In this document: piece by piece, positions 5,184 to 26,265 of the stretch
Numbering within the stretch: position 1 is the first letter of the stretch
Layout: each line of letters opens with the position of its first letter
Source of the DNA: Bacteriovoracia bacterium
GTDB taxonomy: Bacteria; Bdellovibrionota; UBA1018; CAIPTA01
Reading direction: 5' to 3'
NCBI GenBank assembly: GCA_050246755.1
Contig: JBFWVL010000002.1
Location: forward strand, 224,001-288,000
DNA: 64,000 bases
Translations under genes and position numbers: made by a program
Notes under the pieces: generated by a model
Seen by the model: the letters and a program-made list of their open reading frames with translations, nothing else
Told to the model about the DNA's origin: nothing
The model's database searches: none

Positions 5184-6300
5184 AGAGTTTTAGAAAGTTC
5201 AAAGCCTTCTTCGACCAGCTCGCGGCGAAGGACTCTGCACTAGCTCGCTGGATCTCGGCCAAGACGCCTTTTCCCAGCGCTTTACCGGCCTTAGCGGGCA
5301 GATAGCTCTGCAATACCTTTGCCCCGCCCGGGAAATTTTCCTGCAAACCGGCGAGGGCCCGCGCATAGCCATAGAGGGGGATCTTAGGAGACGAAAGCTT
5401 GGCGAAGCCCTCGAGTAGCGCCTCGGCCACTTCGGCCTTTTCCTCTCCACTAAGCAAGGAGTGCCGGGCGATGGCGGCTCCCCAGGCATCGAAAAAAGGC
5501 CCTACCGGCAATAAAAAATCCCGGCTGCGGCGCAGGCATTTGGGCTTTCGCAGGGGATAGTGGCGGTGGTTCTCGGGTGCCATAAAGGCTTTGTTTAAGG
5601 TTCCGGCCTCGACTAGGGTTTCCTGGGCCGGGCCAAAATCGGCGTGCTTCTCGTGGCCCAGCTTATACACGCGAAGGCGGAGAGGATCATTCGGGGGAAG
5701 CTCCCATTGGTCGATCACGCGATCCAAATCCCCGAGGTTATGCGCGATCAGGGTGCAGCACTTGAGGAGCTCCACGCCCTTACGCTGTTTTTTCAAGGAA
5801 TCGAAAATCTTGGCCTCGAGCAGCAGTTCCTCCACGATTTTTTCCACGAAGGCGGCGGCGATTTCAGGATTGCGGTTTCGGTGCGAGGCGTAGGCGCCAG
5901 CCGCCACGCTGAACCACTCTCCCTGGTGCCCGGAAACGTAGGCTCCTTCCGCCTCGGCGAGGCGAGTGGTTACCGGGCGAAAATCCCAGTTCCGCGATTC
6001 GAGCGTGAGCGCCGCCATTTTCTCCGTGATCTCGAGCGGCAGGCTCTCGTCCCAGAGGTGTTTGCGGATTTGGTTATCCACGTCGGTGGGAACGAAGGTG
6101 GCCACGGTGCCGTAGTGGGCGCAGAGGCAGAGGCGGAAGTACTCGAGGTGGTTGAGCGGGGCAGAGGTATCCGTGCGCACCGCGCTCAGGGTTTGCACAT
6201 AGGGCAAAGACCCAAACTCAGGGGTAAAAAGGAAGGCGGCGGTATTTTCCACGAGAGAGAGGAGAGCGGCGGGCTCGATCCCGCGCCGGGGAGCGTTCAC
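5182..6300 (-). CDS. Hypothetical protein
   Basis: Long ORF; GTG start at 6300 directly follows the ferredoxin stop; no family recognised. Confidence 0.75.
   Translation of the reverse strand: MNAPRRGIEPAALLSLVENTAAFLFTPEFGSLPYVQTLSAVRTDTSAPLNHLEYFRLCLCAHYGTVATFVPTDVDNQIRKHLWDESLPLEITEKMAALTLESRNWDFRPVTTRLAEAEGAYVSGHQGEWFSVAAGAYASHRNRNPEIAAAFVEKIVEELLLEAKIFDSLKKQRKGVELLKCCTLIAHNLGDLDRVIDQWELPPNDPLRLRVYKLGHEKHADFGPAQETLVEAGTLNKAFMAPENHRHYPLRKPKCLRRSRDFLLPVGPFFDAWGAAIARHSLLSGEEKAEVAEALLEGFAKLSSPKIPLYGYARALAGLQENFPGGAKVLQSYLPAKAGKALGKGVLAEIQRASAESFAASWSKKALNFLKL
6158..6170 (-). repeat. 13-mer ATACCTCTGCCCC copy inside a CDS
   Basis: Exact GGGGCAGAGGTAT on the + strand; encodes DTSAP in the host gene. 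Confidence 0.7.
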
Positions 6301-6302
6301 GG

Positions 6303-8622: not shown

Positions 8623-9987
8623 ATGGGGTTGATGCGCTTTTCGTTGATGGGGTTACTATTCCTTTTTTCCGTCCAGCCGGCGGGGGCCGCCGAGTGGAAA
8701 TTTTCGCTGAACGGCGAAACCGAGGTCACCGGCCTGCATTGGCAGGAAAAAGTTTTGCCCGATAATCGGCAGAACCGCTATCTGCTGAACCAGAAGCTGC
8801 CGATGACGTTGCGCTACGGGCGCGCGTGGCGGTTCCGCCTACAGCCGATTGCGCTCTTCGATCCTAATAATATCTCCAAGAGCGAGCGCCTATTCTGGGA
8901 TATCCAGGAGGGCTACCTCCAGTACCAGGCGCTACCCTGGACGGTGCAAGTGGGGAATAATATTTTCACCTGGGGCGATACCGACGTGTTCAATCCGCTC
9001 GACGTGGTGAACCAGCGCCGCTATTTCGATCCCTTCCAGTCCGAAAAGCTCGGCGCCCCCGCTCTGATGGTGAAGCGGGAGTTCGAAACATTTTTCGTGG
9101 AAGCGATTTATATCCCGAAGCAGAGAAAAACGTTATTGCCCGGCGAGCAGAGCCGCTGGCTCCCGCGCGACGTGTATAAAAGCCGCAGTTACCGCGTGCC
9201 GATCGTAGCCGGTGGAGTCACGAAAACCTACAATACCACCCTGAATTTACCGTCGGTGGTGAACTACCATTATATGAAGCCCGAGGAGCGCGACAATGCC
9301 CTCGACAATAGTTTCGGCGGCCGTTTCAAATTCCGTTTTCCCGGTTTCGACTGGACGCTCGCGGCGTTCCAGGGAACCGCTCCCACACCCGCGGTAAACG
9401 TAAAGGAAGTAGGGCTCCTTGGTAATATCGCGATTCTGTCGTCCACCGAAATCTCGGCCACTATGCTGGAGCCCGACCTCACGGTGCAGGCCACGTACTA
9501 TCAGTCGCGCATGGGCGGCACCAGTTTCACGCTCGTGGCCGGAGATTTTTTGGTGAAGGGCGCCTCGGCGTATACTTCTCCCGTAAAGCACGCGGGCGAT
9601 TTACCGGCGAAAACGCTCGAGAACGCCCTTGGCCTAGAGCGCACCTTCAGCGTGGGCAAGGGATCGCTTACCGCCTTGGCGCAGGGAACCTACGTGAAGC
9701 GCGGAGACCGCGTGGACACGAACTCCGTTTCGCTAGCCCGTATGTTCGATCGGGCCGGCATGGGGGCCCTTCGCTGGTCGGCGAGCGAGAAGCTCACGGT
9801 ACTGGCTTCTTACCTGCGCGATATCCGTTACAAAGGCAACGTCGTGCATGCCGACGCTTCCTATAAGATCGCCGATGGCTGGCGCGCCAAAGTGGGGGCG
9901 GATTTTCTTTCCGGCCCCACCGAGACGCCGATCGGTACCTACGGGCGTAACGACCGGATTACTTTGTCTTTGAATTCTCAGTGGTGA
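8623..9987 (+). CDS. Putative outer-membrane beta-barrel (DUF1302-like)
   Basis: Signal peptide; QVGNNIFTWGDTDVFNPLDVVN motif; amphipathic strands ending in C-terminal Trp; next to an MMPL/LolA-like gene. Confidence 0.65.
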   Translation: MGLMRFSLMGLLFLFSVQPAGAAEWKFSLNGETEVTGLHWQEKVLPDNRQNRYLLNQKLPMTLRYGRAWRFRLQPIALFDPNNISKSERLFWDIQEGYLQYQALPWTVQVGNNIFTWGDTDVFNPLDVVNQRRYFDPFQSEKLGAPALMVKREFETFFVEAIYIPKQRKTLLPGEQSRWLPRDVYKSRSYRVPIVAGGVTKTYNTTLNLPSVVNYHYMKPEERDNALDNSFGGRFKFRFPGFDWTLAAFQGTAPTPAVNVKEVGLLGNIAILSSTEISATMLEPDLTVQATYYQSRMGGTSFTLVAGDFLVKGASAYTSPVKHAGDLPAKTLENALGLERTFSVGKGSLTALAQGTYVKRGDRVDTNSVSLARMFDRAGMGALRWSASEKLTVLASYLRDIRYKGNVVHADASYKIADGWRAKVGADFLSGPTETPIGTYGRNDRITLSLNSQW

Positions 9988-11512
9988 ACTGAAGCCCGAG
10001 GTTTCCGCCGCTCTGGAGCTGCCAGTGTTCGGGCACCAGCTTGAGCGCTTTGCCCACCACGAAGGTGGGGAAGGCGAGGGTGAGGCCCTCGGCACTCAGC
10101 GATTCCTTCGCCGCGTCGGCCATAGTCTGGGCGGCGATTCTCTTCGTTGGGTTATACTGAGCCACGTATTGCTTGGCCCAGCTATAGCTCATGGGAAGCT
10201 CGTCGGCGGTAACGAGGAAATCCACTTTCCCGCCCTTTTGCAGCTTCATCTTCGATTGGCCCTGGAGCAGGGTTCTGAACTCCACGTAGGGAGTATAGGT
10301 TCCTTTTACCGGGGCGAACATGCGGATCGCGAGCGGGAGCGTGAGATCACCCGAGATCGTGTCGGTGTCGGTCGCTTTTTCGTTGTCGAAAGAGGGCGGG
10401 CCGTTGGGCACGAAGTTAAAGGCGAAGGTAGTATTGGTCGGGAACTTCATGAGGTCCGGCCAAGCCCAGAATTGTTTCCAGCGCGACTGCATGAATTCCT
10501 GGAACGCAGGAATCTCGTAGGAGCGCAGTGAATATTCCAGCTTGCCCGCAAAGTATTCTCCCATCATCAGCGCGCGGATCGTAGCGAACGGCATCATCAA
10601 TTGAGGAATGGCAGTGCTTTGGGTTGCCGCTTGCGAGGTCTTGGCCGCGGTGCCAACACCGAGCTTAAATTCCTGCACGATGTTTTGGTTGGGGGCTACG
10701 TACGGATACACGAAACGCAGCTGGCCCTCGAGCATCAGGCCGCCGCCGCTCTCGCGGGCGTTTTTGGGCTCATAGTAAAGCTTGAGGTAATCTTTTTGCG
10801 TGGGCAATTCGCGCTCGCTGAGCAGGAGAATGCTGGCGTCTTTGCTCCACTGCACGAACTTAGTTTCCAGCTCACCGCGAACTTGCGCATCGAAATTCTG
10901 GAAACTCGCGAGGGCATTGAGCGCGTACTCACGCACGTTCACGTCTAGGCCTTCGGTGCCGCTGCAGGAAATGCTTTCCACTTCCCAAGCGCCTTGCTGC
11001 CAGTCTGCGTTGAAGGAGGGCATGGAGAGCTTTACTTGTCCGTCGAGCACTTCGGCGCGGATGGTGGCGGCCACGGAGCTAAGGCCCGGCTTGAGGCGCA
11101 AGGAAACGTTGTGGCATTCGGCGTCGAGTTTCACGCGGTAGCGAACGCCATCGATCACGCGGTCGACGATTTGCGAGGCCGATATATTAGCTACCGTGAT
11201 GCGCGCGCCGAGCTGATTGCTGGCGAGGGTCCATTCCCGGGTATTGGCGTTAGTACGCTTGGGCACGGGGAAGGCGTAGTTCATCTCGGCGGTGATTCCG
11301 CTGATCTGAATGGGAAGCCCCGGATTGATCGTGAAGTTGGGAATCGCCACGCTCTGGGTGCCGCTGAGGCTCTGCCAGAAATCTTCGATCACTTTGTCGA
11401 AGAGGCTCTCGGTGAGCTGGAGTTGGAATTCACTTTTCACTTCCCAACGCGCTTGGGCGGCGAGGGGGAGAGCGGCGAGCAGTAACGGCAGCGTGTAAAA
11501 AAGTTTTCTCAT
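9959..11512 (-). CDS. Secreted hypothetical protein (517 aa)
   Basis: Signal peptide MRKLFYTLPLLLAALPLAAQA; long beta-rich ORF. Confidence 0.8.
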   Translation of the reverse strand: MRKLFYTLPLLLAALPLAAQARWEVKSEFQLQLTESLFDKVIEDFWQSLSGTQSVAIPNFTINPGLPIQISGITAEMNYAFPVPKRTNANTREWTLASNQLGARITVANISASQIVDRVIDGVRYRVKLDAECHNVSLRLKPGLSSVAATIRAEVLDGQVKLSMPSFNADWQQGAWEVESISCSGTEGLDVNVREYALNALASFQNFDAQVRGELETKFVQWSKDASILLLSERELPTQKDYLKLYYEPKNARESGGGLMLEGQLRFVYPYVAPNQNIVQEFKLGVGTAAKTSQAATQSTAIPQLMMPFATIRALMMGEYFAGKLEYSLRSYEIPAFQEFMQSRWKQFWAWPDLMKFPTNTTFAFNFVPNGPPSFDNEKATDTDTISGDLTLPLAIRMFAPVKGTYTPYVEFRTLLQGQSKMKLQKGGKVDFLVTADELPMSYSWAKQYVAQYNPTKRIAAQTMADAAKESLSAEGLTLAFPTFVVGKALKLVPEHWQLQSGGNLGLQFTTENSKTK

Positions 11513-11590
11513 GGGGCTATTTTCTCACTTCGATAGCTAAAGTTAGTAAGAACCTAAAGTGCCTACAGGAACGAACCGAGTAGTAGCTGA

Positions 11591-11629
11591 TTGACTCGCT
11601 CCATTATTAAATGTTAACATGGGTTAACA
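11591..11629 (+). promoter_or_regulatory. Putative sigma70 promoter with palindromic operator in the divergent intergenic region
   Basis: TTGACT (11591-11596); palindrome ATGTTAACAT (11611-11620) followed by a second GTTAACA; AT-rich. Confidence 0.35.
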
Positions 11630-11682
11630 ATATTGCAATGGGCGACGATATTAAATTTTAAGAAAACCCGAGAGCCCGACAC

Positions 11683-14600
11683 ATGAAAATTAGGCAAATT
11701 ACTGAAGTTACTAAGTTTGTTATGAAAAATGCCAAGCGTTTTTCGATTTTAGTGATTTTGGCTTTTTTGGGTTTGGGGGCCATATCCGCCTTATCACTCT
11801 CTAAGCTCAAGACCGAATACTCCATGCGTCAGTTCTTGCCGCCCCACCATAAACTGATGGAGACCGACGACGCCCTCAAGGCTCGTTTCCAGCTTCCCGA
11901 CCTCGAGCCCTTCTTCGCCCTCATTAGTATTCCTGAAAAAGAGACCGGCAACTGGTTCCAGCCCGAACGCATGGCCAAGCTCAAAGAAATTACCGAGGGC
12001 CTCAATAAGTATGAGGGCGTGAGCCGTGCCATCAGCTTAGCCACGATCGAGGGAGCCTCGTCGAGCCCGGAAGGAATCACCGTGGGGCGTCTGCTCGATC
12101 TCACGCCCGCGAAGGATTGGGAAAATCGCGTGCTTAAAGATCCTATCCTCAGTCCGCACCTGATCACCGCCGACGGCCGCACCGCCGTACTCGCCATGGT
12201 CAACCAAGTGGGCCTCACGCAGAAAGCCAGCACCGCAATTCAGGACGAAACCCGCGTGCGTATCCAGGCCGCCTTTCCTGGCTACCAGCTTCGCCTCGGG
12301 GGCATTCCCGTGGTGCAAACCGAAATGAGCCAAATTCTCGGCAAAGAACTAAAAAATTTCCTCGTGCTCTCGCTGCTCGCCAGCCTTTTCACCCTCATGC
12401 TTTTCTTCCGTTCTTTCTCGAGCGTGCTGATCCCGCTTATCCTATTGTTACTCGCGAACTTCATCAGCTTGGCTTGGATGGCGTGGACGGGCACCGCCTT
12501 CACCGTACTTTCGAGTACGCTGCCCGTGCTCGTGGCGCTCACGGTAGTTTCGATGAGCGCGCACACGATGCTGCGCTACGCTTCGGACTGGCAGCTCGCG
12601 CTCCGCTCCCAAGAGAACCCGAACCCGATCCGCGTGCTTTTCCATTCCTACGCCGGACTGCTATTGCCGAACTTCCTCACGGCCGTAACCACCTCCATCG
12701 GATTTTTCGCGATCGCCTTCGCTAATATTCCCCTTGTGCGCCAATACGGGATCACCGTGGGGATTTCCATTTTCGTTTGCTGGTTCACCGTGATCGGCGC
12801 CTTGCTCCCGCTGCTCGTTCTCTTTCCCGTGCCCCAGGTGCGCGACTGGACCGAAAAGCGCGCCAGCTGGGCCCTCTGGATTACCGCTCACAGCCGAAAA
12901 GTGGTTTTCGCCGTGGTGGCTCTCAGCGCAGTTTGCTTATTTTTCGGGCGTCAGCTCAACTGGTCGGCGCAGTTATTCGACGATCTTCCCAAGGGCCACG
13001 AGGCCCGCGCCACCACCGAGTTCGTGGATTCCCATCTTGGCGGCATGATTCCCCTCGATATCGTGGTGGAGCGCGATGAGGAAAATGCCTGGAACGATCC
13101 CTCGGCTCTCGCTAGATTCGATGAGCTCGCTAATGATTGGCGCAAGCATCCCGCCGTTGGCTCCGTGACCGGCCCGCAGGATTTCATTCGCGTGGCCGGT
13201 AAAGTGCAGGGGCGGGGCCTCGCTTCCACCCGTCAAGAGGCCGCTGAGTACGCGTTCCTCTACGGATTCGCCGCCGATAATCCTTATAAGCAATACGTAA
13301 CGTCGGACGGCCGCGCCGCCCGCATCAACTTGCGCTTGCATGATATCCCCGGCGATAAAATGGCCTTGGTGGTGCAGCAGCTCACCGAGCAAACCCAGGC
13401 GAAATTCCCCGGCTGGAAGGTAACGCCCGGCGCGATGGCCACCACCGTGCATGTGCTCAATAACGAACTTTGCCGCGAATTGATCTGGGGTTTCTGGCAA
13501 GCCTTGCTCTTAATCGCCGTCGTTCTTGCTTGTGTATTCCGCTCCGTGCGCTGGACGATCGCGGCGGTACTGCCGAACTTGGTTCCCGCGTTCTTACTTC
13601 TTGGCGCGCTGTACCTAGGCGCTACGCCGATTAAGCCTGGCATCGCCCTGATCTTTTCGATCGCCCTCGGTATATCCTTCGACAATACCGTGTATCTCAT
13701 GGGGCGTTTACGCCTTCTGCGGGACCGCTCCGCCACGAAAAAAATCATGGTCGCCAAAGCCTGGTACCAAGAAGGCAATCTCTGTCTCTTTTCCTCGCTC
13801 GCGTTGTCTTCCGGTTTTCTTGTATTCTTGGCCTCGTTCTTCTCGCTCAATCAGCAGTTCGGTATGTATATGCTCATCGCCATCCTGGGATCCCTCGTCG
13901 GAGATCTCGTGCTCATGCCCGCAATGCTTGCGGCCTTCCCCCGGATGCTGGAGAATAGAGCCAAACCCGAACTTCAAAAGGAGAATGATATGTCTGAGAG
14001 AGCGATCGCCGCCGGTATTGCACTGGCATTTTTCACCAGCAGTTTCGCCTACGCTGCGGTGGATTTGAAAGACGCGAAGTCCATTCTGAAAAACGTAGAG
14101 AAAAATATGTCGGCTACCGACGAAGTGGCCAACGTGAAGATGACCATCACCGAAGCCGACGGCACGAAAAAAGATCGTGGCCTGCAGATCAGCCGCAAGG
14201 GCAAAGACGCAGACCAAAAAGTAATGGTGCGCATGAACGCTCCCGCCGATCTAAAGGGCACCGCGCTGCTCTCCGTTTCGAAGGGCAAATCCAGTGACCA
14301 GTGGCTCTATTTGCCCTCGAGCAAGCAGACGCGCCGGATCCAGAGCGGTAACCGCAGCGGCGGTTTCATGGACTCCGAGATGAGCTACGAAGACATGGGC
14401 ACCAACGCCGACGCGAAATTCGAGAGTAAAGTTCTACCCGAAGAGACGATCGCCGGCCGCAAGTACTCCGTGATCGAGAGTATTCCGAAGGGCGAGAGCT
14501 CTTACGGCAAAGTGGTGACCTGGGTAGACCAGGGAACGTACCTCGTGGGCAAGATGCAATACTTCGACAAGTCGATGAAGCCGCTCAAGGTGACGAACTT

Positions 14601-14766
14601 CACGGGTTACAAGCAATACGACAAGGGAGTATGGCGCGCGCAAAAAGTGCAGGTGCAGAATCTGCAAAATAAACGCGGCACCACCCTCGAGCTTTCCGAC
14701 CTGAAACTTAACAAAGGCCTCGACGACGCCGAATTCACCGAGAGCGCCCTCACCGAAGGCGATTGA
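11683..14766 (+). CDS. MMPL/RND-family transporter fused to a C-terminal outer-membrane lipoprotein-sorting (LolA-like) domain
   Basis: Two RND TM repeats (IALGISFDNTVY); C-terminal PADLKGTALL...QWLYLPSSKQTRRI...FMDSEMSYED typical of LolA-like sorting proteins. Confidence 0.85.
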   Translation: MKIRQITEVTKFVMKNAKRFSILVILAFLGLGAISALSLSKLKTEYSMRQFLPPHHKLMETDDALKARFQLPDLEPFFALISIPEKETGNWFQPERMAKLKEITEGLNKYEGVSRAISLATIEGASSSPEGITVGRLLDLTPAKDWENRVLKDPILSPHLITADGRTAVLAMVNQVGLTQKASTAIQDETRVRIQAAFPGYQLRLGGIPVVQTEMSQILGKELKNFLVLSLLASLFTLMLFFRSFSSVLIPLILLLLANFISLAWMAWTGTAFTVLSSTLPVLVALTVVSMSAHTMLRYASDWQLALRSQENPNPIRVLFHSYAGLLLPNFLTAVTTSIGFFAIAFANIPLVRQYGITVGISIFVCWFTVIGALLPLLVLFPVPQVRDWTEKRASWALWITAHSRKVVFAVVALSAVCLFFGRQLNWSAQLFDDLPKGHEARATTEFVDSHLGGMIPLDIVVERDEENAWNDPSALARFDELANDWRKHPAVGSVTGPQDFIRVAGKVQGRGLASTRQEAAEYAFLYGFAADNPYKQYVTSDGRAARINLRLHDIPGDKMALVVQQLTEQTQAKFPGWKVTPGAMATTVHVLNNELCRELIWGFWQALLLIAVVLACVFRSVRWTIAAVLPNLVPAFLLLGALYLGATPIKPGIALIFSIALGISFDNTVYLMGRLRLLRDRSATKKIMVAKAWYQEGNLCLFSSLALSSGFLVFLASFFSLNQQFGMYMLIAILGSLVGDLVLMPAMLAAFPRMLENRAKPELQKENDMSERAIAAGIALAFFTSSFAYAAVDLKDAKSILKNVEKNMSATDEVANVKMTITEADGTKKDRGLQISRKGKDADQKVMVRMNAPADLKGTALLSVSKGKSSDQWLYLPSSKQTRRIQSGNRSGGFMDSEMSYEDMGTNADAKFESKVLPEETIAGRKYSVIESIPKGESSYGKVVTWVDQGTYLVGKMQYFDKSMKPLKVTNFTGYKQYDKGVWRAQKVQVQNLQNKRGTTLELSDLKLNKGLDDAEFTESALTEGD

Positions 14767-14784
14767 TCTCTAGTTTGTGTTCTT

Positions 14785-14820
14785 AAGAGCCGGTCACCTA
14801 TAAGGGTGGTCGGCTTTTTT
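14785..14820 (+). terminator. Rho-independent terminator
   Basis: Stem AGCCGGTCACC/GGTGGTCGGCT followed by a T tract. Confidence 0.75.
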
Positions 14821-14860
14821 GTGCCTGTTTTGCACGCGCATGCTGCCGCCCCGTCCGCTG

Positions 14861-15040
14861 GAATACCTCTGCCCCGGAGAGTGCCTTCGCTTTTGCGAAT
14901 ACCTCTGCCCCGCGCCAGCAACTCTGCTCCTTAAAATACCTCTGCCCGGTGTGGGGGCAATCACCATCGTGTCAGATTTTCGTACGCGCCCACGTCTGCA
15001 TACCGAACACCGCTCTCCTAAAATACCTCTGCCCCAGAGG
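14861..15040 (+). repeat. Cluster of four direct repeats (A)ATACCTCTGCCC(C) upstream of the HUH transposase (REP-like)
   Basis: Copies at 14863, 14899, 14936 (12/13) and 15023; spacing 36, 37, 87 bp. Confidence 0.9.
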
Positions 15041-15086
15041 CTTTACCCCACGCGGAAATGGCATGCTTCCCGCTCGGCCCGCCCGC

Positions 15087-15605
15087 ATGAAATTCCAAGT
15101 ACGTAAATGGAGTCCGCTCGAACACGGAGGTATCGTACGCAAGGGCCAGCGGAAACGCCGCCGCTATATGGATGTGAGTCGAACCCTGCACTTGGTGATG
15201 CGTTCTACTAAGGCCAGGGGCCACCGCAGTTTTATTAACCCGCGCAATAAGGGCGTGATCCATCTGCTGCTCATCGATACGGCCAATCGCTACGAGATAA
15301 AAATCTATAACTACGTGAACGTTGGCAACCATCTGCACCTTCACGTGCGCGGATGGAAACGCAAAAATCTCCAGGCATTCTTGAAAGTATTCCCGCAAAG
15401 AGTGATGTTCCACGTAACGGGCGCACGCAAGGGTCGCCCGCGCGGCAAGTTTTTCGATGAGATCGTCTATTCGCGCGTGGTGAACTGGGGCGGCGATTTC
15501 AAGCGCGTGAAAGAATATTTTTGGAAGAACACGCTCGAGGCGCTGGGATTCAGTCACGCCACGATCGTGAAGTGGCGCAGGGCCGCGCGGATAGTGCCGC
15601 CCTAA
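15087..15605 (+). CDS. Y1 HUH-family transposase (IS200/RAYT-like, stand-alone)
   Basis: HGG...RK..R...LHLVMRS, HUH motif GNHLHL, SRVVNWG, catalytic Tyr in EYFWKN; no tnpB; start set at MKFQV. Confidence 0.8.
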   Translation: MKFQVRKWSPLEHGGIVRKGQRKRRRYMDVSRTLHLVMRSTKARGHRSFINPRNKGVIHLLLIDTANRYEIKIYNYVNVGNHLHLHVRGWKRKNLQAFLKVFPQRVMFHVTGARKGRPRGKFFDEIVYSRVVNWGGDFKRVKEYFWKNTLEALGFSHATIVKWRRAARIVPP

Positions 15606-16408
15606 CGGACCAGCGGAAAGAAATCGAAGCTATATACGTAGGCCGTTTCTTCGGGAGACTTAGCGATCACGTCTTGGTTCTTTTTTAGATTTTCCAGCAG
15701 GGAAACTTTCACGCGCTCGGCATCTTCCCGTGAAAGGCTCACGCAGGCCGAGTAGTGCATGTCGTTGGTGCCCGCCGAGTCCATCGACTGAATTGAAAAT
15801 AGCCGCCAGTTGCTGTGCAGGTTCTTGATCAGCGGATCGGTGGCGGGTAGGTGCACGTGGCTCGGGCCGGCGGAGTAGTGGGTGCCCTTAAGCTTGAGGA
15901 TCCCGCAACCCACGAGGAAATCCAATTTCTCGTCGAGTTCGGCCGGATGCACGCGCAGGGCCTGGCTGAGCGCGAGTTTGGTCTGAAAAGACGGGATCGA
16001 GCAGAGTACGTGAATTGCGGCGTAGAGGTGGCTCGAGTGGAATCGCGCGGTGTCGCTCGCGGAAATACCGGTAGAGGGCCGCACTACTTTTGAGGGCGTA
16101 AGTTTCTGCGCGCGTTTAGCGGCGAGTAGAGTTTGAAATCGCTGGCGGGCTTTTGAGGAGCGGGCGCGGTCGCGGCAGACTAGGAGCGCGAAGTACTCGG
16201 CCTCGTCCTCGTCGTGACGAAGAAAATCATTCATGAGCTCGGCCTGTTCGGTGCTAAGGTCGGCTTTTCCCGAAAGAATTTGCGATAAATAGGTAGTGTG
16301 AACGGCCAAAGCGCGGGCCGCATCGGCGCGCATGCCCGAGCGATGACCCTGCTCGTCAAATCGTAACTTAAGGTAATCGCGGTAGTTTTGGGATTCGTAG
16401 ATTTTCAT
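15602..16408 (-). CDS. TIGR02147/DUF4423-family HTH protein
   Basis: YRDYLK...ARALAVHTTYLSQILSGKADLS.EQA HTH; LHSNWR; C-terminal VYSFDFFPL. Confidence 0.8.
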   Translation of the reverse strand: MKIYESQNYRDYLKLRFDEQGHRSGMRADAARALAVHTTYLSQILSGKADLSTEQAELMNDFLRHDEDEAEYFALLVCRDRARSSKARQRFQTLLAAKRAQKLTPSKVVRPSTGISASDTARFHSSHLYAAIHVLCSIPSFQTKLALSQALRVHPAELDEKLDFLVGCGILKLKGTHYSAGPSHVHLPATDPLIKNLHSNWRLFSIQSMDSAGTNDMHYSACVSLSREDAERVKVSLLENLKKNQDVIAKSPEETAYVYSFDFFPLVR

Positions 16409-16507
16409 ACCTGTGCCCTCGAGGTGTAGAGTTATTCTCTTATTTCAACCTGATGATTTAGTAAAATAATCTTTTCGCGCTTGTGGCCTGCACGTATAAA
16501 CAGTCTC

Positions 16508-17545
16508 ATGATGAAACTCATTTTGGTTTTGGGAATTTTCGGCGCGCTCCACGCACAGGCCGGCGTGATCAACGGCGGCGGGGGCAAAGGTATTCTCTGC
16601 GTGAACCCCGACGGCAGCCGCACGGTGGAGAGCCTCGATCGCTACGAAGCGAGGATCGTTTGGCGCTACTCGGTGCCCGAGAGCAAGGATTTCGACGCCG
16701 AGTTTTTGCGGATGATGTCGAGGGCCCACTATGCTTTCAATGGGAACGCCCACCAAGCGCCCGGTCCTTATTCGGCCAAAGAGCACGAAGAATTTTTGTT
16801 GCTGCTCAAGGTATTCCAGGCCCAAATGAATTTTCTTCCAGTAGGCACTCACCTCAAACCCACCGATGACGCCGGGGAAGTGGTGATTCCGCCCGCAAAC
16901 TGCGCCATCACGCAGGTGATCCATTACCTCGATGAAACCGAACGTACCGGGCAGATCCTGGTAGACAAAGAATACTGGGACCTTCTCTCCCCGCAGGATC
17001 AAGTCGGTTTTTTCATGCATGAAGTGGTTTACAAAGATTTTCGCACTTCCGGCGAAACTTCCTCTCTGCGCACCCGTAAACTAGTGGGCCGTTTGCTTTC
17101 CAGCGAGGTGTATCCAAATCCTTATTCTCCACTCTGGGGAGCGCCCAAGATGCTGCATTGCCTGGGCAAGATGGACGATTATGGATGGGGAACTTCCAGC
17201 GGGCTGGATTTTTACGTAGTTCCTGCTGTGGATAAGCCGGGCCGCAATGCGGCTTTGCTCGTGTTCACTACCATCGGCGACGACGGCATGATGGCCGCCA
17301 CCACGGCGCTCAGTCCTTTCGAGTACGAAAGCTTTACTGGTGATCCGCAGTACGCCAGTTACGGGTCGGCCAGCTTGTCGGTGAATTCATTTTATGGTCC
17401 GCGCAGCCTGGTGCTCAGGATGGGGGGAGAAGGAGCTGGCTCTCCGCCGCCGCAGCCTTCCCTGCGGAAGATGTTTATGCGCTTCGATCGTAAAGGACAA
17501 ACCCAGGAAACGGAGTTTTCCTGCCAACCCGAGGAGAGACAATGA
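16508..17545 (+). CDS. Secreted hypothetical protein (Bdellovibrio-type GGGG N-terminus, HE motif)
   Basis: Signal peptide then GVINGGGGKGILC; FFMHEVVY; divergent from the TIGR02147 gene. Confidence 0.8.
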   Translation: MMKLILVLGIFGALHAQAGVINGGGGKGILCVNPDGSRTVESLDRYEARIVWRYSVPESKDFDAEFLRMMSRAHYAFNGNAHQAPGPYSAKEHEEFLLLLKVFQAQMNFLPVGTHLKPTDDAGEVVIPPANCAITQVIHYLDETERTGQILVDKEYWDLLSPQDQVGFFMHEVVYKDFRTSGETSSLRTRKLVGRLLSSEVYPNPYSPLWGAPKMLHCLGKMDDYGWGTSSGLDFYVVPAVDKPGRNAALLVFTTIGDDGMMAATTALSPFEYESFTGDPQYASYGSASLSVNSFYGPRSLVLRMGGEGAGSPPPQPSLRKMFMRFDRKGQTQETEFSCQPEERQ

Positions 17546-17925
17546 AGTACTTGCTCATCGCCATGCTGTTCGCCAATACCGTTTTCGCCGCCGATAATTG
17601 CGGTCCGCAGGAAGGAAAATTCGGCTGGGAAAAAGCCGTGAAAGTAGGGGACGTAGTCACCTTCTTCAACCCGCGTCTCAATCTCGACGGGGTGAATCTC
17701 ATCCCGATCGCTTTCGACGACGGCGTGACCGAGTCCTTTTCGAACGGCGTTTGCAAAGCCCTCGGCAAGAAGACGGGTACCGTAGGCCAGATTACTCGAG
17801 CGTACGAGCTGGAAACCACACTCGCGGTTTTCATCGATGCGGCGGGCCGCGTGGCGTATATGCATGAAATTGGAAGAAATTCTGGATCCTATACTGGAAT
17901 CGTAAACTCGATTTCCTGCCGCTAG
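17542..17925 (+). CDS. Small secreted hypothetical protein
   Basis: Signal peptide MKYLLIAMLFANTVFA; start overlaps the upstream stop; GGAG RBS. Confidence 0.75.
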   Translation: MKYLLIAMLFANTVFAADNCGPQEGKFGWEKAVKVGDVVTFFNPRLNLDGVNLIPIAFDDGVTESFSNGVCKALGKKTGTVGQITRAYELETTLAVFIDAAGRVAYMHEIGRNSGSYTGIVNSISCR

Positions 17926-17957
17926 TCATTACATAAAATTTAAGGAGAACGATAACC

Positions 17958-18437
17958 ATGAAATTTCATGCAACGGCACTGCTTTGCCTAGTCCTAACTG
18001 CCTGTGGAGCGGAGGAGCCTAGAGACCAAGAAATAAGCACCGATACTGCCACTATCACCGAGAACCTCGTTGCGGCACCGATGCCCGGCGATGGACGGCT
18101 AAACCAGACAGAGTTTAAGTCGCTCCATTGCGTGGCGCTTGTGAGTTCCTCGAATAACCCGGCGCGGGTTTTGGCGAGCGTGAAGTGCGATGGGTTCGGC
18201 GTCGTAAGCGGGGACTACGTGCTCGAATGCCAAGACAACAGGCTCTGCGTTCAGCGGCAATCCGTGCACGGAGGGCAGACAGAAGCGGTTTTTTCCGAAA
18301 ATTTCATGCAGATGATCCTGACGATTTCCGACTCGAATGGAAAGAAAGTTTATAGTGATAACTTCGTTTGCGAGAAGGGTTGTGCGCTGGAATTTCAGCC
18401 GCCTTCGTTCGAGAAAGGCACTCAGCCACGGCCCTAA
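17958..18437 (+). CDS. Hypothetical lipoprotein
   Basis: Lipobox LTAC; AAGGAG RBS. Confidence 0.75.
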   Translation: MKFHATALLCLVLTACGAEEPRDQEISTDTATITENLVAAPMPGDGRLNQTEFKSLHCVALVSSSNNPARVLASVKCDGFGVVSGDYVLECQDNRLCVQRQSVHGGQTEAVFSENFMQMILTISDSNGKKVYSDNFVCEKGCALEFQPPSFEKGTQPRP

Positions 18438-19675
18438 AGATTGCGAAATGCCTCGGGCGTGCCCATGCCCCTGATTTCGTCGCCGGCCTTGGTGCTCCCA
18501 TGGGTATGGAATTCCCGCCGCCGTTTTCGGTAAGAAACACTCACGCGCTCAAACAGCGAAATACCGTGCATTTCGGCCGGGGCAGGCGAAACCGCCGGCC
18601 CGCGCAGATCGCTCAGCGGGTTCATCGCGCCCGGCGAGATTTTTTCAATCGAAGCTAGGTGGCGCGCCCCTACGTCTACGGGCGCGGAAGCACCGAAGGC
18701 CTGCGCGTAGCCTTCCGAAATACCTCTGCCCCGAGGCGAGGGTGCTAGGGGAGTGGCCTCCCTAGTAGGCGCCAAAACCTGTGCCCCGGCTAGTAGGGCA
18801 GGTCCGCCGCTAGCGTTGAACCTAGTCGACTGGCCCGCACTCGTCACGGATACCTCTGCCCCAGAGGCGGGCGTCACGCGGCCCTCCAGCGCTTTCGCCA
18901 CCACGGGGCCGGGGTCCGCGAGCGTTTCTTCGACGGCGTTGCGTTTGGTTCGATCCAGTTTTCCCACGAACGGTGATTCGTTCACGATCGCCGCAAACGG
19001 CTCGCCAGCAAAAGCACGCCGCATGATCTCGCCGTTCTCGTAGCCAAGGTAGACGGATCCGTCGGGGAAGCGCTCCGATAATTCTTTCCACCCGAGCGCG
19101 TTCACCGCCGTGGACCTAGAAACCCCCGAACGGCTTTCTTCCGGCGCCAATGTGGGCACCATCACCGGGGCGCCGCTCGCCATTTCGGTGAGCCCAGTCA
19201 TGGGAGAAACCAGCGCGTCGGTACGCGTTTTCGTAGAGTAGCAGCCCGTCATCGACGAAGCGTATTGGCTGCTGAACGCCATCCAGTCGGTCATCGTGAA
19301 GCCATCGGCGCCCCAGGAAGTGCATTCGCCCGCGCCGTCGCGGGTAAGGCAATTGGCGGCGTTCCGGAGGGCTTGGCTTAGTCCCACGCATTCCGGGCTT
19401 TTGGGAGAAGCCGCGCAAACGGAATCCGTGCGCCCGCCTACGTTCGTGCCCACGCAGCCTCCCATTACGTTGGAGCCCATCACGAAGGCATTGGCTTGGG
19501 TGGACTCGGAATCCACATCTTCTCTATAGAGCTGGTTATTGTATTTCGTTACCTCGTACTCGTCGGAGCGTTTGGAATCGCCGGCGCCGGTCGTTTTACC
19601 GTTCTCGCCAACTAGATCGTTCGCGGCGAAGCCAAGGCCGGGGCAGAGGTATAAAATTAAGAAGAGGCGAATCAT
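18434..19675 (-). CDS. Secreted Cys-containing hypothetical protein with C-terminal SLFERVS..Y motif
   Basis: Signal peptide; shares blocks with the upstream paralogue; coupled start/stop. Confidence 0.8.
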   Translation of the reverse strand: MIRLFLILYLCPGLGFAANDLVGENGKTTGAGDSKRSDEYEVTKYNNQLYREDVDSESTQANAFVMGSNVMGGCVGTNVGGRTDSVCAASPKSPECVGLSQALRNAANCLTRDGAGECTSWGADGFTMTDWMAFSSQYASSMTGCYSTKTRTDALVSPMTGLTEMASGAPVMVPTLAPEESRSGVSRSTAVNALGWKELSERFPDGSVYLGYENGEIMRRAFAGEPFAAIVNESPFVGKLDRTKRNAVEETLADPGPVVAKALEGRVTPASGAEVSVTSAGQSTRFNASGGPALLAGAQVLAPTREATPLAPSPRGRGISEGYAQAFGASAPVDVGARHLASIEKISPGAMNPLSDLRGPAVSPAPAEMHGISLFERVSVSYRKRRREFHTHGSTKAGDEIRGMGTPEAFRNL

Positions 19676-20015
19676 AGTTCCGTGCCCCCGCGATTCACCA
19701 GCTCGCGCACATCTTTGGGCTCGGATTTTTTTGGCAGGCGCTTGATATAGTCTTCCATGCCCCGAAGGTTCGGCACCTGCCGCTGGTAGACGGTGCTCAC
19801 CCGGTCAAAGAGCGTGAGGTCGAGGCCGAGGGAATAGGGATTGTGCTTGAGCGCGCGCACGAAGTTTCCGTTGCTTGCGGGCCTGGGCGATACCTCTGCC
19901 CCGGAAGAGGTGGCCGGTTCGCGATTAGCGGTGCTGCCAATGATGATCGCGCCGTAGCCGCTATCGGGTGCGCCCCAGCGCCGGGTACGCTTGCTAGCCG
20001 AAATACCTCTGCCCC
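18720..20015. repeat. Five exact intragenic copies of ATACCTCTGCCCC plus one degenerate copy
   Basis: + orientation at 18720, 18850, 19890, 20003; reverse at 19640-19652; degenerate AAACCTGTGCCCC at 18775. Confidence 0.9.
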
Positions 20016-20625
20016 CGAGGTGGGTGGTCTCGGCCAGCGCGTCGGCGGGGGTGTCCACCACGGGGTAGGGAGTTTTCGCGGCGAGCTCCATGGTGTCCTG
20101 CTCGTGGGCGGGAATCTGCGTCCACATCGGCGAGGAGCTCAGTACGGACTCAAAACTTTCGCCCTCGAGGGTACGGCGCAGGATGCTTCCTTCGCGTAGT
20201 CCGAACGAGCTCGCGCCTTCTTCGAGGGAGGCCAGGAGGGCGCGGAAATTGGGATCGGCGAGCGCTTCCTGGGCACCGGAAGAATCGTTGTTGCCATACT
20301 GGTTGCGCACGCACTGGTGAAATACCGCGAGGTAACCCGCCGCAACCGATACCCACTGCGACTGCGTATTTTGGCGATACGCGTAGGCTAGGCAGGCCTC
20401 GCCGGCCCGCGCGCGGCACTGGTCTTTGCGGAGAGCATTGCGGAGGGCGAGCTGCATGCCCACGCAGGCATCGGCTTCGTGGTCGCTGGCGCAGTCGCCG
20501 TCGAAGCGGCCGCCGATCGCGGTTTCGATGCAGGAGAGCGTGGGTTTGGCGCTCGCGCCGGAGCGCAGAGGTTTTGCCTCCGCCGCGGTAGTAGCCAGGA
20601 GCAGGATGAAAACGAAGCTGTTCAT
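19672..20625 (-). CDS. Secreted Cys-containing hypothetical protein with C-terminal TLFDRVS..Y motif
   Basis: Signal peptide MNSFVFILLLATTAAEA; block CVGMQLALRNA shared with the neighbour. Confidence 0.8.
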   Translation of the reverse strand: MNSFVFILLLATTAAEAKPLRSGASAKPTLSCIETAIGGRFDGDCASDHEADACVGMQLALRNALRKDQCRARAGEACLAYAYRQNTQSQWVSVAAGYLAVFHQCVRNQYGNNDSSGAQEALADPNFRALLASLEEGASSFGLREGSILRRTLEGESFESVLSSSPMWTQIPAHEQDTMELAAKTPYPVVDTPADALAETTHLGGRGISASKRTRRWGAPDSGYGAIIIGSTANREPATSSGAEVSPRPASNGNFVRALKHNPYSLGLDLTLFDRVSTVYQRQVPNLRGMEDYIKRLPKKSEPKDVRELVNRGGTEL

Positions 20626-20626
20626 C

Positions 20627-21745
20627 CTAGAACTCGAGCGCGGCCGTGCCCTTTAGGTCGAAGATCGGCCGCGGAGCATCCGCTTGCTCGCGTTTCACGC
20701 CGAACATGAGAGGCGTCTTTTTATGGTACTGCGCGCGCACCATTTCGAAGATGCTCCGGCTGCTGATCCCGTTGCGATCGAGAGCCGCTTGCACTTCGGG
20801 GCTGATGCTGCCGTCTTTGGTGCCGCCACCCAGCGCCACGCCGCCGCCGGTATCTCCGGCGCCGGGCTTCCCGAAGAGCGAATCGAAGTCAGTGGTGGGG
20901 GCCGCGGAATTGATCTTCCGGTCACCACCGCTGGCGCTATACGCGCCTTCGCCAGCGAGGTCCTGGGCGTTGAGGCCGAGCCGGTCCATCACTTCTTCGC
21001 CGGTGAGGGGATTGGTATTGGCCATCGTGGAATCAATCATCTTCTGGAGCTCGGATTCCGATTTTCCGATTTTTGAAGAGCCGGCGAGAATTTCCGCGGG
21101 GCTTTTGCCCGCGTTCAAGCCATTGATGAGGTCGTCGCGGCTCAGGCCGGTTTTGTTTTCGAAGTCGTTGAGAATCTCCCCGATTTTTCCGCCATTGCGA
21201 GCGAGGGCCGGGTCGATTTTGATCGAGCTGCCGTTGCTCTCGTTCGACAAATTTCCGGGGCCAACGCTTTTTACGCTCTCGGCGGTGGGGCCGAGGTTAT
21301 TCGCGTATCCGCCGGCCTGCTGTCCGTTCTTACGCATATTGCTGGCAGCGGCGAGGGCGGCCATTCCGGCCATCATCAGCGCGATCCCCGCGGCCATGAG
21401 TGCCATACCGGGAGCCACGGTGGGAGGGCTCGCCATCATCGCGGCCCCGGCCGCCATCATTGCCATACCGGCGGCGATCGCCGCCAGGCCGAGGCTAGTG
21501 GAAGAGCTATCGCCTTGCTGATTGAGCTTGTTCGCGTCGTTCTGGTGCTGGAGCTGGGTCACGGTCGGCGCGGGAGGAGTGGGCATGGTGCTGGTGAATT
21601 TGTTGGCATCGGTTTTGGTGCTGGTGGAGCCGATATTCACGTCTCCCACGCTCACGCCGGCGGCCATGGCGTCTTCCACGCAAATATCGGCGGACGAAGT
21701 CCACAGAACCAAGGCGACAATCAATGTCCAAATGCCTAATTTCAT
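20627..21745 (-). CDS. Secreted hypothetical protein with Ala/Met-rich hydrophobic hairpin and C-terminal SIFEMV...Y motif
   Basis: Start set at MKLGIW; hydrophobic segment LGLAAIAAGMAMMAAG...; Gly-rich linker. Confidence 0.8.
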   Translation of the reverse strand: MKLGIWTLIVALVLWTSSADICVEDAMAAGVSVGDVNIGSTSTKTDANKFTSTMPTPPAPTVTQLQHQNDANKLNQQGDSSSTSLGLAAIAAGMAMMAAGAAMMASPPTVAPGMALMAAGIALMMAGMAALAAASNMRKNGQQAGGYANNLGPTAESVKSVGPGNLSNESNGSSIKIDPALARNGGKIGEILNDFENKTGLSRDDLINGLNAGKSPAEILAGSSKIGKSESELQKMIDSTMANTNPLTGEEVMDRLGLNAQDLAGEGAYSASGGDRKINSAAPTTDFDSLFGKPGAGDTGGGVALGGGTKDGSISPEVQAALDRNGISSRSIFEMVRAQYHKKTPLMFGVKREQADAPRPIFDLKGTAALEF

Positions 21746-23988: not shown

Positions 23989-24017
23989 AATTTCGCAAAA
24001 GTTTAAATCAAAAAAAT

Positions 24018-24510
24018 TGTAAGGGTCCATTCCGGAGACATAGGTAACACTTTTGTGCCGAACGGATCGGCCACGGGCTCGACTCTTTTACCCTCTTCAT
24101 CAAAATATCCAAGATCATAATTCAAAAAAGATACGACCCAGATTCCATCCTCCACCTCTTTGATCCCCACTTCTTGGCCAGCAAAGGCCGTGCTTAGATT
24201 GATCTTTATACGCTTCCACGGCAGATTCTCTCGCACTGGGTGACCTGGATTGTTTTGTCGTGGAAGGGGCAAAAAAGTTCTGGAGCCCCAAGATAAGGGC
24301 GGGGCGATGGTTTGTAGAGCTCAACAGGGTACTTCATGCCGAGGCCTTGATGAGGGCGTTCTCGATTAAATTCTTCGATGAAGTGATCAAGTTTTTCCTG
24401 CTGCTCAAGGAGATTGTTTCCGGGCGGCCGTGTAGTACTTCGCTTGAGCGTCAGGTGCATACGCTCGTGCCGGCCGTTTTGCTCGGGGTGGTCTGTCCGT
24501 TCCAATTAAA
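24018..24510 (-). pseudogene. IS481-family transposase 3' remnant (truncated, frameshifted) with terminal TGT end
   Basis: QNGRHERMHLTLK...FNRERPHQGL in one frame continues as INLSTAFAGQEVGIKEVEDGIWVVSF...VLPMSPE in another; end TGTAAGGGTCC at 24018. Confidence 0.8.
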
Positions 24511-24512
24511 TC

Positions 24513-25397
24513 TTAGACTGCAGATTCACTGCTAAAGTCCATAGGCTCGGATGACTCGGGTAGTTCTGCCTTTTTGATCTTCCGGGCCTTCTCTGGGGGC
24601 TGCGTAAGGGATTTGATTCCGTCTTCAATCCAAGAGCGATATTTTCCAATACTAGTGTAAGCCGTATAACGAAAGCCACAGAAGAGGGAGGAGTCCGCAT
24701 AGAAAGCTGCCGAGGCCACGCCCAGCTGCAAGGCTTCTCCATTTTCGTCCAATTCATAGAGAGGCCCGCCAGAATCCCCCTTACAACTTCCGCCCCTGTC
24801 TGTGTTTTCAATCACGAACTGGCCGAGTTTTTCTTTTACATCTATTTTTTCAAAGACATCCGTACCCGAAACGGGGGCAGACATCAGAACGGACCAATCA
24901 GCAAAACCGGCAACGCGAATCTCTCCCATATCGTGAGCTTCATCAACTAAGCGAATCGCTTTATAGGGGGACGGCACATCGTTTGGCAGCAGGATAAGGG
25001 CGAGATCATTATTTTTTCCTTGTGCGTCCAGCATCTCGCCGGGAGTACAACGCTCCTTGGGATTAGCTTTCTGACATGTTTTCAGCGTTCCCGCCCACTG
25101 CTTGTGAACGAGCACGTTAATGGGATCGTCAGATATCGGCCTTCCCCAATTATCTCGAGCATATTGGAAATCTACGCGCATCCAGCTTGCTGGCCCTTGG
25201 ATGCAATGAGCGGCCGTAAGAAGAATTCGTGGGGCGATAATAGTGGCGGTGCAGTCTCCGCCTATGCCACTACGAATTTTCACAGTTGATTTTGATATGC
25301 TGCTGACTGGATCTTCTTTTACTCCGGAGCTAACTGCGAAGGCCGCTTGTCCGCAAAACGAGAGAAGAATGACGAAGCTCATGCAGAAGGTACGCAT
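24513..25397 (-). CDS. Secreted trypsin-like (S1) serine protease
   Basis: CTATIIAPRILLTAAHC, NDLALI, SCKGDSGGP catalytic triad motifs; signal peptide. Confidence 0.92.
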   Translation of the reverse strand: MRTFCMSFVILLSFCGQAAFAVSSGVKEDPVSSISKSTVKIRSGIGGDCTATIIAPRILLTAAHCIQGPASWMRVDFQYARDNWGRPISDDPINVLVHKQWAGTLKTCQKANPKERCTPGEMLDAQGKNNDLALILLPNDVPSPYKAIRLVDEAHDMGEIRVAGFADWSVLMSAPVSGTDVFEKIDVKEKLGQFVIENTDRGGSCKGDSGGPLYELDENGEALQLGVASAAFYADSSLFCGFRYTAYTSIGKYRSWIEDGIKSLTQPPEKARKIKKAELPESSEPMDFSSESAV

Positions 25398-26147: not shown

Positions 26148-26265
26148 ACACTTGTTTGTAATACAAGCTTGGGAACTTTAAGTCCGGAAGATCTGATTTC
26201 TTTGAAGACGGCATTCACTATTTTGGGTTCAAATAAGCAATTGAATTGATTCAGCACCCGTAAAA

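Follow-up and report, generated by a model that had tools for sequence, protein, structure and literature searches.

The 64,000-nucleotide (nt) stretch analysed here, called the window, comes from the chromosome of a Bacteriovoracia bacterium. It carries a small gene of the Y1 HUH type and, around this gene, a cluster of copies of a 13-nt motif, ATACCTCTGCCCC. The link of the motif to the Y1 gene is real and is broader than the window alone shows, since related motifs lie upstream of genes of the same family across the class. This Y1 clade very probably has the motif as its cognate site. Direct observations are the association of motif and gene, the edges of the cassettes, the variants particular to each species, the clustering near the gene and the presence of copies within genes. 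With the catalytic residues kept and the site at cassette edges, we consider it on balance probable that they reflect a low-copy, local system resembling REPtrons and TIRtrons, in which the enzyme, or the repair that it triggers, generated the local copies.

Local excess of the motif

The window's own genome, labelled G000 (3,546,152 bases in 10 contigs; the window is G000:C2:224001-288000), contains 11 exact copies of ATACCTCTGCCCC. Two of them are outside the window, at C1:327431 and C5:60998, and the other nine are found inside a span of 13.9 kb. An earlier reading made from the letters alone (the sequence-only reading) had listed these nine, at 14863, 14899, 15023, 18720, 18850, 19890 and 20003 on the plus strand and at 6158 and 19640 on the minus strand. 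All were recovered by the motif scan, as were a copy with 12 of 13 matches at 14936 and two degenerate copies at 16407 and 18775. The list was nevertheless incomplete: two copies with one mismatch, ATACCTTTGCCCC, at 5313 (plus) and 16581 (minus) had been overlooked. It had spotted none by eye beyond 20.1 kb; the only matches past 20015 are two with two mismatches (32745 and 56163), which is the chance level.

With up to two mismatches allowed, the window contains 17 matches against 1.32 expected, a number reached in none of 100 shuffles. The generic pattern ATACCNNTGCCCC, with at most one substitution, has 71 matches in the genome. Counted by distance from the Y1 gene, 14 of them lie within 10 kb of its start, compared with 0.40 expected under an even spread (35-fold local excess). 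In all, about 15 local copies surround the Y1 gene. The exact 13-mer is found 0-1 times per genome in 40 relatives. The composition across the region is unremarkable. From the genome-wide, relative and shuffle counts, the motif is thus neither a common genomic word, such as an uptake sequence or a Chi-like site, nor a chance cluster or an effect of base composition; the signature of an imported island was likewise rejected. The flanks of solo copies are unrelated past about 19 nt, and no piece of the Y1 gene or of the motif-gene interval was found beside any of them.

The plus strand is G-rich across the whole window. In terms of IS200/IS605 biology, this would place 9 of the 12 window copies with at most one mismatch on the lagging-strand template, a bias that is not significant and gives no more than a hint.

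A divergent Y1 HUH family

The window protein shows the NHLH and the tyrosine described in the sequence-only reading, the tyrosine being in a YxxxN context. Its own scores are low. PF01797 (Y1_Tnp) gives an E value of 0.034 (14.7 bits for a cut-off of 23), the NCBIfam RAYT model NF047646 (REP_Tyr_transpos) gives 0.026 (14.4 bits, short of the cut-off of 80), and the single sequence had no match when used as a query against the PDB. In an alignment of 32 homologues, PF01797 is matched by 27 at E <= 0.01 (best 3.5e-7). The RAYT model and the IS200 model are matched by 17 of 32 each, all weakly. Membership in the Y1 HUH superfamily therefore follows from the relatives, despite the sub-threshold score of the window protein. 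The five best PDB matches of the family profile are all ISDra2 or IS608 TnpA chains (E 0.005-0.03), and the HUH region aligns with that of ISDra2 TnpA. In the protein Atlas, the neighbours are Bdellovibrionota PF01797 clusters (0.97 by features; TM of the stored model 0.68-0.86). Judged by these comparisons, the window open reading frame (ORF) is a divergent Y1 HUH protein related to IS200 TnpA and RAYT.

Invariant positions in the 32 aligned sequences are the N-terminal HGG, R34, N-H-x-H (89-92), Y152, N156 and E159; an extra conserved N-terminal arm rich in HGG and RK is also seen. In Table 1 of Quentin et al. (PMC6006769), class 2 (RAYT-like) is defined by NHxH and YxxxN with a proline (Y---NP), and IS200 by DH[VI]H and Y---Q. 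The window protein follows the class-2 pattern and not that of IS200, except that the proline is replaced by A, T or L across the family. A clean RAYT assignment is not supported for the RAYT-like protein proposed earlier, as its own scores are sub-threshold and the RAYT and IS200 models fit the family equally weakly. The earlier statement that tnpB is absent agrees with the five adjoining ORFs between 15602 and 19675, which give DUF4423 or no Pfam family.

Our searches found 179 homologues, and those with names bear names of Bdellovibrionota metagenome-assembled genomes or 'RayT'. The family comprises 646 clusters at 50% identity (E <= 1e-30), and the clade is widespread in Bdellovibrionota. 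No homologue was found in plasmid and phage collections. The gene is single-copy in G000, which also has one 31%-identical paralogue. The word Bdellovibrio does not occur in the main texts of three RAYT classification papers (PMC6006769, PMC3733652 and PMC5581495). With supplements outside the scope, a literature search for a motif-bearing Bdellovibrionota Y1 family found nothing pertinent. As far as searches show, the clade has not been described.

Association of motif and gene across the class

We assembled 47 family loci, of which 30 come from 24 relatives (cited below by labels such as G003), 16 are further paralogues and one is a metagenome contig (L117). Each locus was searched for the pattern [AC]C-NN-TGCCC within 300 nt upstream on the strand of the gene, with two control regions per locus. 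A related motif (ATACC-NN-TGCCCC, core TGCCC) was present at 35 of the 47, stemming from 18 of the 25 genome or contig sets. Neither control gave a match: the count was 0 of 47 downstream of the gene, and 0 of 47 upstream when the antisense strand was read. Homologues thus have an associated motif. Several of the 12 misses carry near-variants (TTTG-T-CCCC in G002, GGCATTGCCCC in G030, CCATTGACAAC in G018). The class-wide consensus is A-ATACC-AT-TGCCCC, and clade-specific forms include ATATGACATTGCCCC, AAAAACCCATTGCCCC and AAATAACATTGCCC. Clades, and species as described below, thus have their own variants, a point that the sequence-only reading had proposed to check.

An AT-rich, -10-like box usually follows the motif after 3-7 nt, and a -35-like hexamer is often found just ahead of it, as in TTGAAA-17-TATACA (G034) and TTGCTA-17 (G036). 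Flanked by these boxes, the motif thus falls within the core promoter; at two loci it directly adjoins the start codon.

Family genes are the only places where most genomes carry the extended motif, and the generic 13-mer stays at background level in relatives. Where ATACCA[TC]TGCCCC is present in a relative, it adjoins a family gene. Extra 10-mer matches in G024 were set aside as ordinary coding sequence without the extended motif. Relatives without a homologue at E <= 1e-10 lack the motif, with 0 (G001) or 1 (G007, background) generic matches. As the motif is abundant neither across G000 nor in relatives, the refuting outcomes of this kind named in the sequence-only reading did not come about.

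Cassette edges and relocation

Five G036 paralogues (86-91% identical) can be aligned from about 8 nt ahead of the motif as far as the stop codon. The G003 cassette of 718 bp reaches from 2 nt ahead of its first motif copy to 1 nt past the stop codon. G003 and G004 have the cassette between the same flanking genes, at the same intergenic site, in opposite orientations, and the G004 cassette has inverted motif copies at both ends. The orthologues of G000, G002 and G003/G004 are found at three different chromosomal places. From these edges and differing loci, the gene moves together with motif and promoter as one compact unit. The absence of insertion sequence (IS) ends stated in the sequence-only reading was consequently too strong, since in G003 and G036 the 5' edge of the cassette coincides with the motif, and the location of the cassette differs between species. 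No right-end counterpart of the motif was found, the cassette ending at the stop codon.

Multi-copy relatives (G018, G036, G034) have copies of 82-95% identity, some as units of 680-720 bp. In G018, three 89-95% identical units of about 700 bp with a family gene (L008, L026, L057) start with GGGGCAGTATTATT and have a TTGACA-18-TATAAA promoter; from its sequence, this unit looks like an active IS200-sized element of the same family.

A search for an empty site at the G003/G004 insertion point gave no clean one, as the site is variable in every genome examined. This site carries different genes in every other examined genome. Lying between two conserved genes that converge, it forms a hot spot (G000:C2:193986-195819 and its counterparts in G001-G007).

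Variants within the genus

G003 has the closest orthologue found (59% identity). Four upstream ATACCTTTGCCCC copies give it a window-like layout, and one ATACCATTGCCCC lies 13 kb off. In G002, ATACCTTTGTCCCC lies upstream with an inverted partner 29 nt away, and more copies are found at 4.4 and 8.7 kb; the copy at 8.7 kb is the window's exact 13-mer, inside a gene. G004 has seven exact TTACCACTGCCCC at five loci, most of which share a G-N-ATATAG tail. Within each species, all copies carry one variant. G000 nonetheless retains three copies of the G003 type (5313, 16581 and C7:96296), as expected if an earlier wave of copying preceded the present one. Inverted motif arrangements are seen only in G004, G002 and possibly G005.

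A two-copy pattern was used to look for arrays in 185,579 species genomes and a metagenome collection (17 and 61 matches, respectively). Arrays are rare: array and Y1 gene occur together only in the G003 contig and in L117; the rest lack the gene. Short tandem repeats also occur beside family genes, with a 13-nt unit three times (L005 1307-1345 and L004 1439-1477; G004, G002) and a 19-nt unit four times (L015 2064-2133; G015).

Upstream array and hairpins

The four direct copies upstream of the Y1 gene are separated by 23, 24 and 74 nt. These spacers are mutually unrelated and have no match anywhere else in the G000 genome. A metagenome contig from another study (run X3) spans window positions 5156-21500 at about 93% identity in the same gene order (679 differences in 9,682 bases and 470 in 6,604 bases). 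It lacks exactly one array unit (36-nt repeat plus spacer), with a joint from 14838 to 14897 and 24 letters between.

The 19-mer at 15023, made of the motif and AGAGGC, recurs identically at 18850. Four to six bases complementary to the CCTCTG part of the motif trail 6 of the 11 exact copies, compared with 189 of 1441 (13%) of the other TGCCCC sites in the genome. The resulting hairpins are weak (-1.8 to -6.1 kcal/mol as DNA; z below -2 in 2 of 12 folded copies). Region 14933-14962, around the third array copy and the partial inverted copy facing it (Table 1), folds at -4.3 kcal/mol, and a second scan also lists its stem. The description of the motif as mostly unpaired calls for a slight correction, in that a short inverted repeat is enriched. 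A hairpin common to the whole family was set aside as weak, with at least three pairs in only 7 of 54 regular-expression instances, some of them unrelated sites. A CRISPR-like array was also rejected, as the repeat is too short, the spacers are unmatched in the genome and no cas or defence match was found. A promoter scan of 14600-16700 reported no promoter, and an Rfam search of 14000-21000 returned nothing relevant.

Copies inside genes

As the sequence-only reading had stated, the motif also lies inside genes, with exact copies in ORFs 5182-6378, 18434-19675 and 19672-20625 (Table 1). In the two secreted-protein genes, four copies lie on the plus strand, antisense to the coding sequence, in linkers that cannot be aligned among homologues. 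The copy at C5:60998 lies in the N-terminal linker of a TonB-like ORF. In-gene copies are translated in three frames (GAEV; GRGI; TSAP or LCP), and most of them are in poorly conserved segments. Because the motif occurs on both strands and in three frames, it is not a protein-level repeat. If copies had been inserted or patched in at the DNA level, the survivors would be expected mostly in tolerant segments, as is seen. The copy at 5313, over conserved GGxKxL codons, may partly be due to chance. A shufflon-type inversion between 19640 (minus) and 19890/20003 (plus) was also considered and rejected, as the contigs have no alternative joints and the inverted form would, by eye, break the frame.

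Motif retention in the 93%-identical X3 relative was judged from protein sequences. Four of the eight copies checked lie in a linker in which 11 of 49 residues differ, compared with 8 of 268 elsewhere in that protein, and the residues coded by the motif are the same. The in-gene copies are for this reason older than the split of about 7%, and look either maintained or slowly decaying. For annotators, a caution follows: short mobile or selected DNA sites may sit in frame within real genes.

Possible origins of the copies

In the system that we favour, the Y1 protein would bind the motif, and its single-strand cleavage and joining, or the repair triggered by it, would have made the copies. Across the class, one site lies on the 5' side of the Y1 gene, in the core promoter region. 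In some genomes a compact cassette that has been duplicated or relocated begins exactly at this site. In the genus of the window, the site changes species by species in all copies together and has multiplied, in units of 13-19 nt that sometimes include a hairpin of 4-7 bp. These units form an upstream array with unrelated spacers, plus solo copies within about 10 kb, and copies landing in genes would survive mostly in tolerant parts such as linkers, a variable loop or a signal peptide. The exact 13- to 19-mers in unrelated contexts argue for copying rather than convergence. A more specific form, in which the Y1 HUH enzyme writes its own 13-19-nt site into nearby single-stranded DNA by cleavage, strand transfer and repair, seems unlikely to us. 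If true, it would mean that repeat-spacer arrays are built and sites seeded in neighbouring genes, giving a self-extending local field. Such sites might go on to work as operators or iterons of the island, or to reshape linkers in the secreted proteins next to it, and this genesis of repeats would be distinct from REPIN transposition and from insertion sequences.

Several points weigh against spreading by the enzyme. Selected binding sites would give the same pattern. Copies of the operator or iteron type, kept by selection with no mobilisation, are possible rather than probable in our estimation. The Y1-derived protein, or another factor, would bind its own promoter for autoregulation; a nucleoprotein complex formed locally on extra sites would regulate or silence the island together with the secreted-protein genes beside it, and the sites would coevolve with the specificity of the protein. 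Most genomes indeed have one motif per gene, placed like an operator between -35-like and -10-like boxes (G034, G036) or 3-7 nt before an AT-rich box, and the extra 10-mers of G024 lack the extended motif. The array is iteron-like, with direct repeats and unrelated spacers, and each species uses one variant across all copies. At all eight in-gene copies checked (exact or with one mismatch), the coded residues are unchanged in the relative with about 7% divergence, even in fast-evolving linkers; such retention is at least as compatible with selected binding sites as with neutral relics of transposition. Contigs (not reads) show no joints between motif copies except for the one-unit difference in the array. 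No element known to move by the IS200/IS605 or REPIN route is nearly as short as the unit of 13-19 nt. The hairpin is weak, absent in half of the copies and not kept across the family, where the 7 of 54 instances with at least three pairs come from a regular expression that also took in unrelated sites. The motif is not always the edge, as the repeated unit of about 700 bp starts 55 nt earlier in G018 and at least 85 nt earlier in G034. Finally, the window protein's own scores lie below every curated family cut-off. Selection alone, however, would hardly create exact 13- to 19-mers de novo at five or more coding places in three frames. The 19-mer common to 15023 and 18850 and the enriched inverted repeat point to copying, and the older-variant copies of G000 (5313, 16581, C7:96296) look as if left by successive copying waves. 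In addition, the motif forms the cassette edges in G003 and G036, and a regulator that only bound DNA would have no need of the invariant HUH and tyrosine residues.

The solo copies and the array could also be scars of a hopping cassette of motif and gene that left or duplicated its left-end sequence at each stop. The different loci in congeners, with inversion at one shared site, agree with this, as do the motif at the left edge in G003 and G036 and the change of the array by whole units of repeat and spacer. We find this origin distinctly improbable, because excision in the IS200/IS605 family is described as precise (PMC5027513), because solo copies have no fragment of the gene or of the motif-gene interval, unrelated flanks past about 19 nt and spacers unmatched elsewhere, and because no right-end counterpart was found. 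Least probable is an ordinary promoter element of an alternative sigma factor or regulon, with an incidental local excess. A CCCC(A/T) stretch with an AT-rich box does recur, and the dispersed copies of G004 share the G-N-ATATAG tail. Yet the extended motif is essentially confined to family genes in relatives, the in-gene copies of the window are mostly antisense and lack a -10-like box, the scan of 14600-16700 finds no promoter, and a 35-fold local excess is not incidental. Promoters of the sigma-54, FliA and sigma-32 types were rejected, as their spacings do not match the consensus sequences when compared by eye.

Comparison with known systems

REPtrons consist of RAYT (TnpA-REP) genes with REP or REPIN families (Nunvar 2010; Bertels and Rainey 2011; Ton-Hoang 2012; PMC6006769). 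The system of the window resembles them in its stand-alone, low-copy Y1 HUH gene without tnpB and with a short cognate repeat adjoining, and in a repeat variant that tracks the gene lineage (in G000, G002, G003 and G004 and in clades elsewhere). NHxH and YxxxN are as in class 2, and some copies are short stem-loops after a conserved 5' tail. It differs in repeat length (13-19 nt compared with 21-65 nt in the REPtrons of these sources) and in copy number, with 11 copies, nine of them local within about 10 kb, compared with tens to hundreds genome-wide. In place of inverted flanks, four direct copies precede the gene in the window and none follows directly on the stop codon; the inverted copy nearest to the Y1 gene is at 16581, about 1 kb downstream. 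There is no GTAG tag here, the hairpin is weak or absent in half of the copies, the tyrosine motif lacks the proline of Y---NP, and the gene is not syntenic among congeners.

TIRtrons, or TIRYTs, have RAYT-like genes with non-REP flanks, and repeats that are moderately abundant or absent (Di Nocera et al. 2013, PMC3733652). Some of these repeats occur in dimers or clusters, and many share the TIR motif GGGGWSAS (PMC3733652). Against this description, the RAYT-like gene, the non-REP flanks and the few repeats agree, as does the G004 cassette flanked by inverted copies. The reverse complement of the motif (GGGGCA..GGTAT) does not fit GGGGWSAS as given in that source, having C at the W position, and no inverted copy lies right after the gene in the window and at most family loci.

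Likeness to IS200/IS605 TnpA is seen in the small Y1 HUH protein, in the ISDra2 and IS608 TnpA chains that are the best PDB matches of the family profile, and in the 680-720 bp multi-copy units of some relatives, which are of IS200 size. No left and right subterminal hairpins of the IS200 type were found. The protein has YxxxN instead of YxxxQ and NHLH instead of DH[VI]H, by the signatures in PMC6006769, as well as the extra N-terminal HGG/RK-rich arm, and its gene is single-copy in G000.

The upstream array, with short direct repeats, irregular and unrelated spacers upstream of an HUH gene and the last repeat on a small hairpin, is reminiscent of iterons. Iterons beside rep genes occur on plasmids of the RepA type and at the HUH Rep origins of rolling-circle replicons. 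The locus differs in being chromosomal, without homologues in plasmid and phage collections, and mostly with a single site, and nothing points to a role in replication.

Systems of this general kind are thus known, since REPtrons, TIRtrons, low-copy repeat families around RAYT-like genes and REPs inside genes are in print (PMC3733652, PMC5581495). Distinct here are the large Bdellovibrionota clade, the class-wide 13-nt site at the promoter or 5' edge, the very short units, the arrays with unrelated spacers and the strictly local spread. Single steps in the birth and spread of REP-type repeats by domesticated Y1 enzymes are hard to see in the classic systems because these are old, high-copy and genome-wide. 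The present system is small enough to be read copy by copy, with one gene, a class-wide 5' site, species variants and about 15 local copies; the one-unit difference in the array between two close genomes adds to this. Recognition by the Y1 protein, and any preference for DNA near its own gene, become directly testable with a protein of 180 amino acids and oligonucleotides of 20 nt.

The locus and its neighbours

Positions of the features are collected in Table 1. In G001, G002, G004, G005 and G007, the MMPL-LolA gene directly adjoins homologues of 18434-19675 and 19672-20625. Because the flanking genes are adjacent in these five relatives, segment 14767-18433 is an insertion.

Table 1. Positions of the motif copies, the Y1 gene and associated features in the window.
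Positions	Strand	Feature	Basis
5313..5325	+	Variant copy ATACCTTTGCCCC, antisense in ORF 5182-6378 (-), over conserved FPGGxKxL codons	Motif scan
6158..6170	-	Exact copy on the sense strand of ORF 5182-6378 (-), at a variable loop (DTSAP) prone to indels, the rest of the protein being well conserved	
14767..18433		About 3.7 kb absent between the same flanking genes in relatives: Y1 cassette, three small ORFs for secreted products and a DUF4423 helix-turn-helix (HTH) gene (15602-16408, -)	
14863..15035	+	Upstream array of four direct motif copies (14863, 14899, 14936 at 12/13, 15023)	Motif scan
14953..14965	-	Partial inverted copy of an ancestral-type motif (GGTGATTGCCCCC), head to head with array copy 3; weak	Read from sequence
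15026..15040	+	Hairpin of 6 bp and a 3-nt loop, CCTCTG-CCC-CAGAGG, at the copy nearest the gene	-4.8 kcal/mol, z -3.39
15063..15605	+	Y1 HUH (IS200/RAYT-like) gene, 180 amino acids (probable limits); HGG, NHLH, Y152-x3-N156-x2-E159	ORF and 180-amino-acid database entry
16407..16419	+	Degenerate copy of the CTGTG type, two mismatches, at the start of the DUF4423 gene; counted in the local excess	
16581..16593	-	Variant copy ATACCTTTGCCCC (G003 type) inside ORF 16508-17545, read GGKGI	
18720..18732	+	Exact copy, antisense in gene 18434-19675 (-), read GRGI, variable linker; kept in protein P0125 of the relative of about 93% identity	
18775..18787	+	Decayed copy, two mismatches, read GAQVL (GAEVS in the relative of about 93% identity)	
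18850..18862	+	Exact copy with the hairpin of the gene-proximal copy, read GAEV, linker of gene 18434-19675	
19640..19652	-	Exact copy, sense, within the signal-peptide codons of gene 18434-19675 (LYLCPG)	
19890..19902	+	Exact copy, antisense in gene 19672-20625 (-), read GAEV, variable linker	
20003..20015	+	Exact copy, antisense in gene 19672-20625 (-), read GRGI, variable linker	

The plus-strand gene at 11683-14766 encodes one protein of 1027 amino acids, in which an MMPL/RND-type transporter is fused to a LolA-like domain at the C terminus and which is conserved among the genomes of the family (60-74% identity). On the other side, 18434-20625 (minus strand) holds two adjacent paralogous genes for secreted proteins of 413 and 317 amino acids, with conserved Cys-rich N-terminal and C-terminal domains. 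Pfam gave no family for either protein; the pair is kept in tandem across the bacterial family. The DUF4423/HTH protein belongs to a strongly expanded family, with 13 further paralogues in G000 (E <= 1e-20, 28-41% identity), and no clear orthologue was found in relatives.

Elsewhere in the window, the G+C content is 0.46-0.48 at 24001-28000, compared with 0.54-0.60 in the remainder, and this may be a separate acquired segment. Region 6768-7334 has a contig depth about 5 times (X1) and at least 10 times (X2) that of the neighbouring bins, with many loose ends and joints. It is a conserved stretch of an MFS transporter that is common to other organisms in the X1 and X2 samples.

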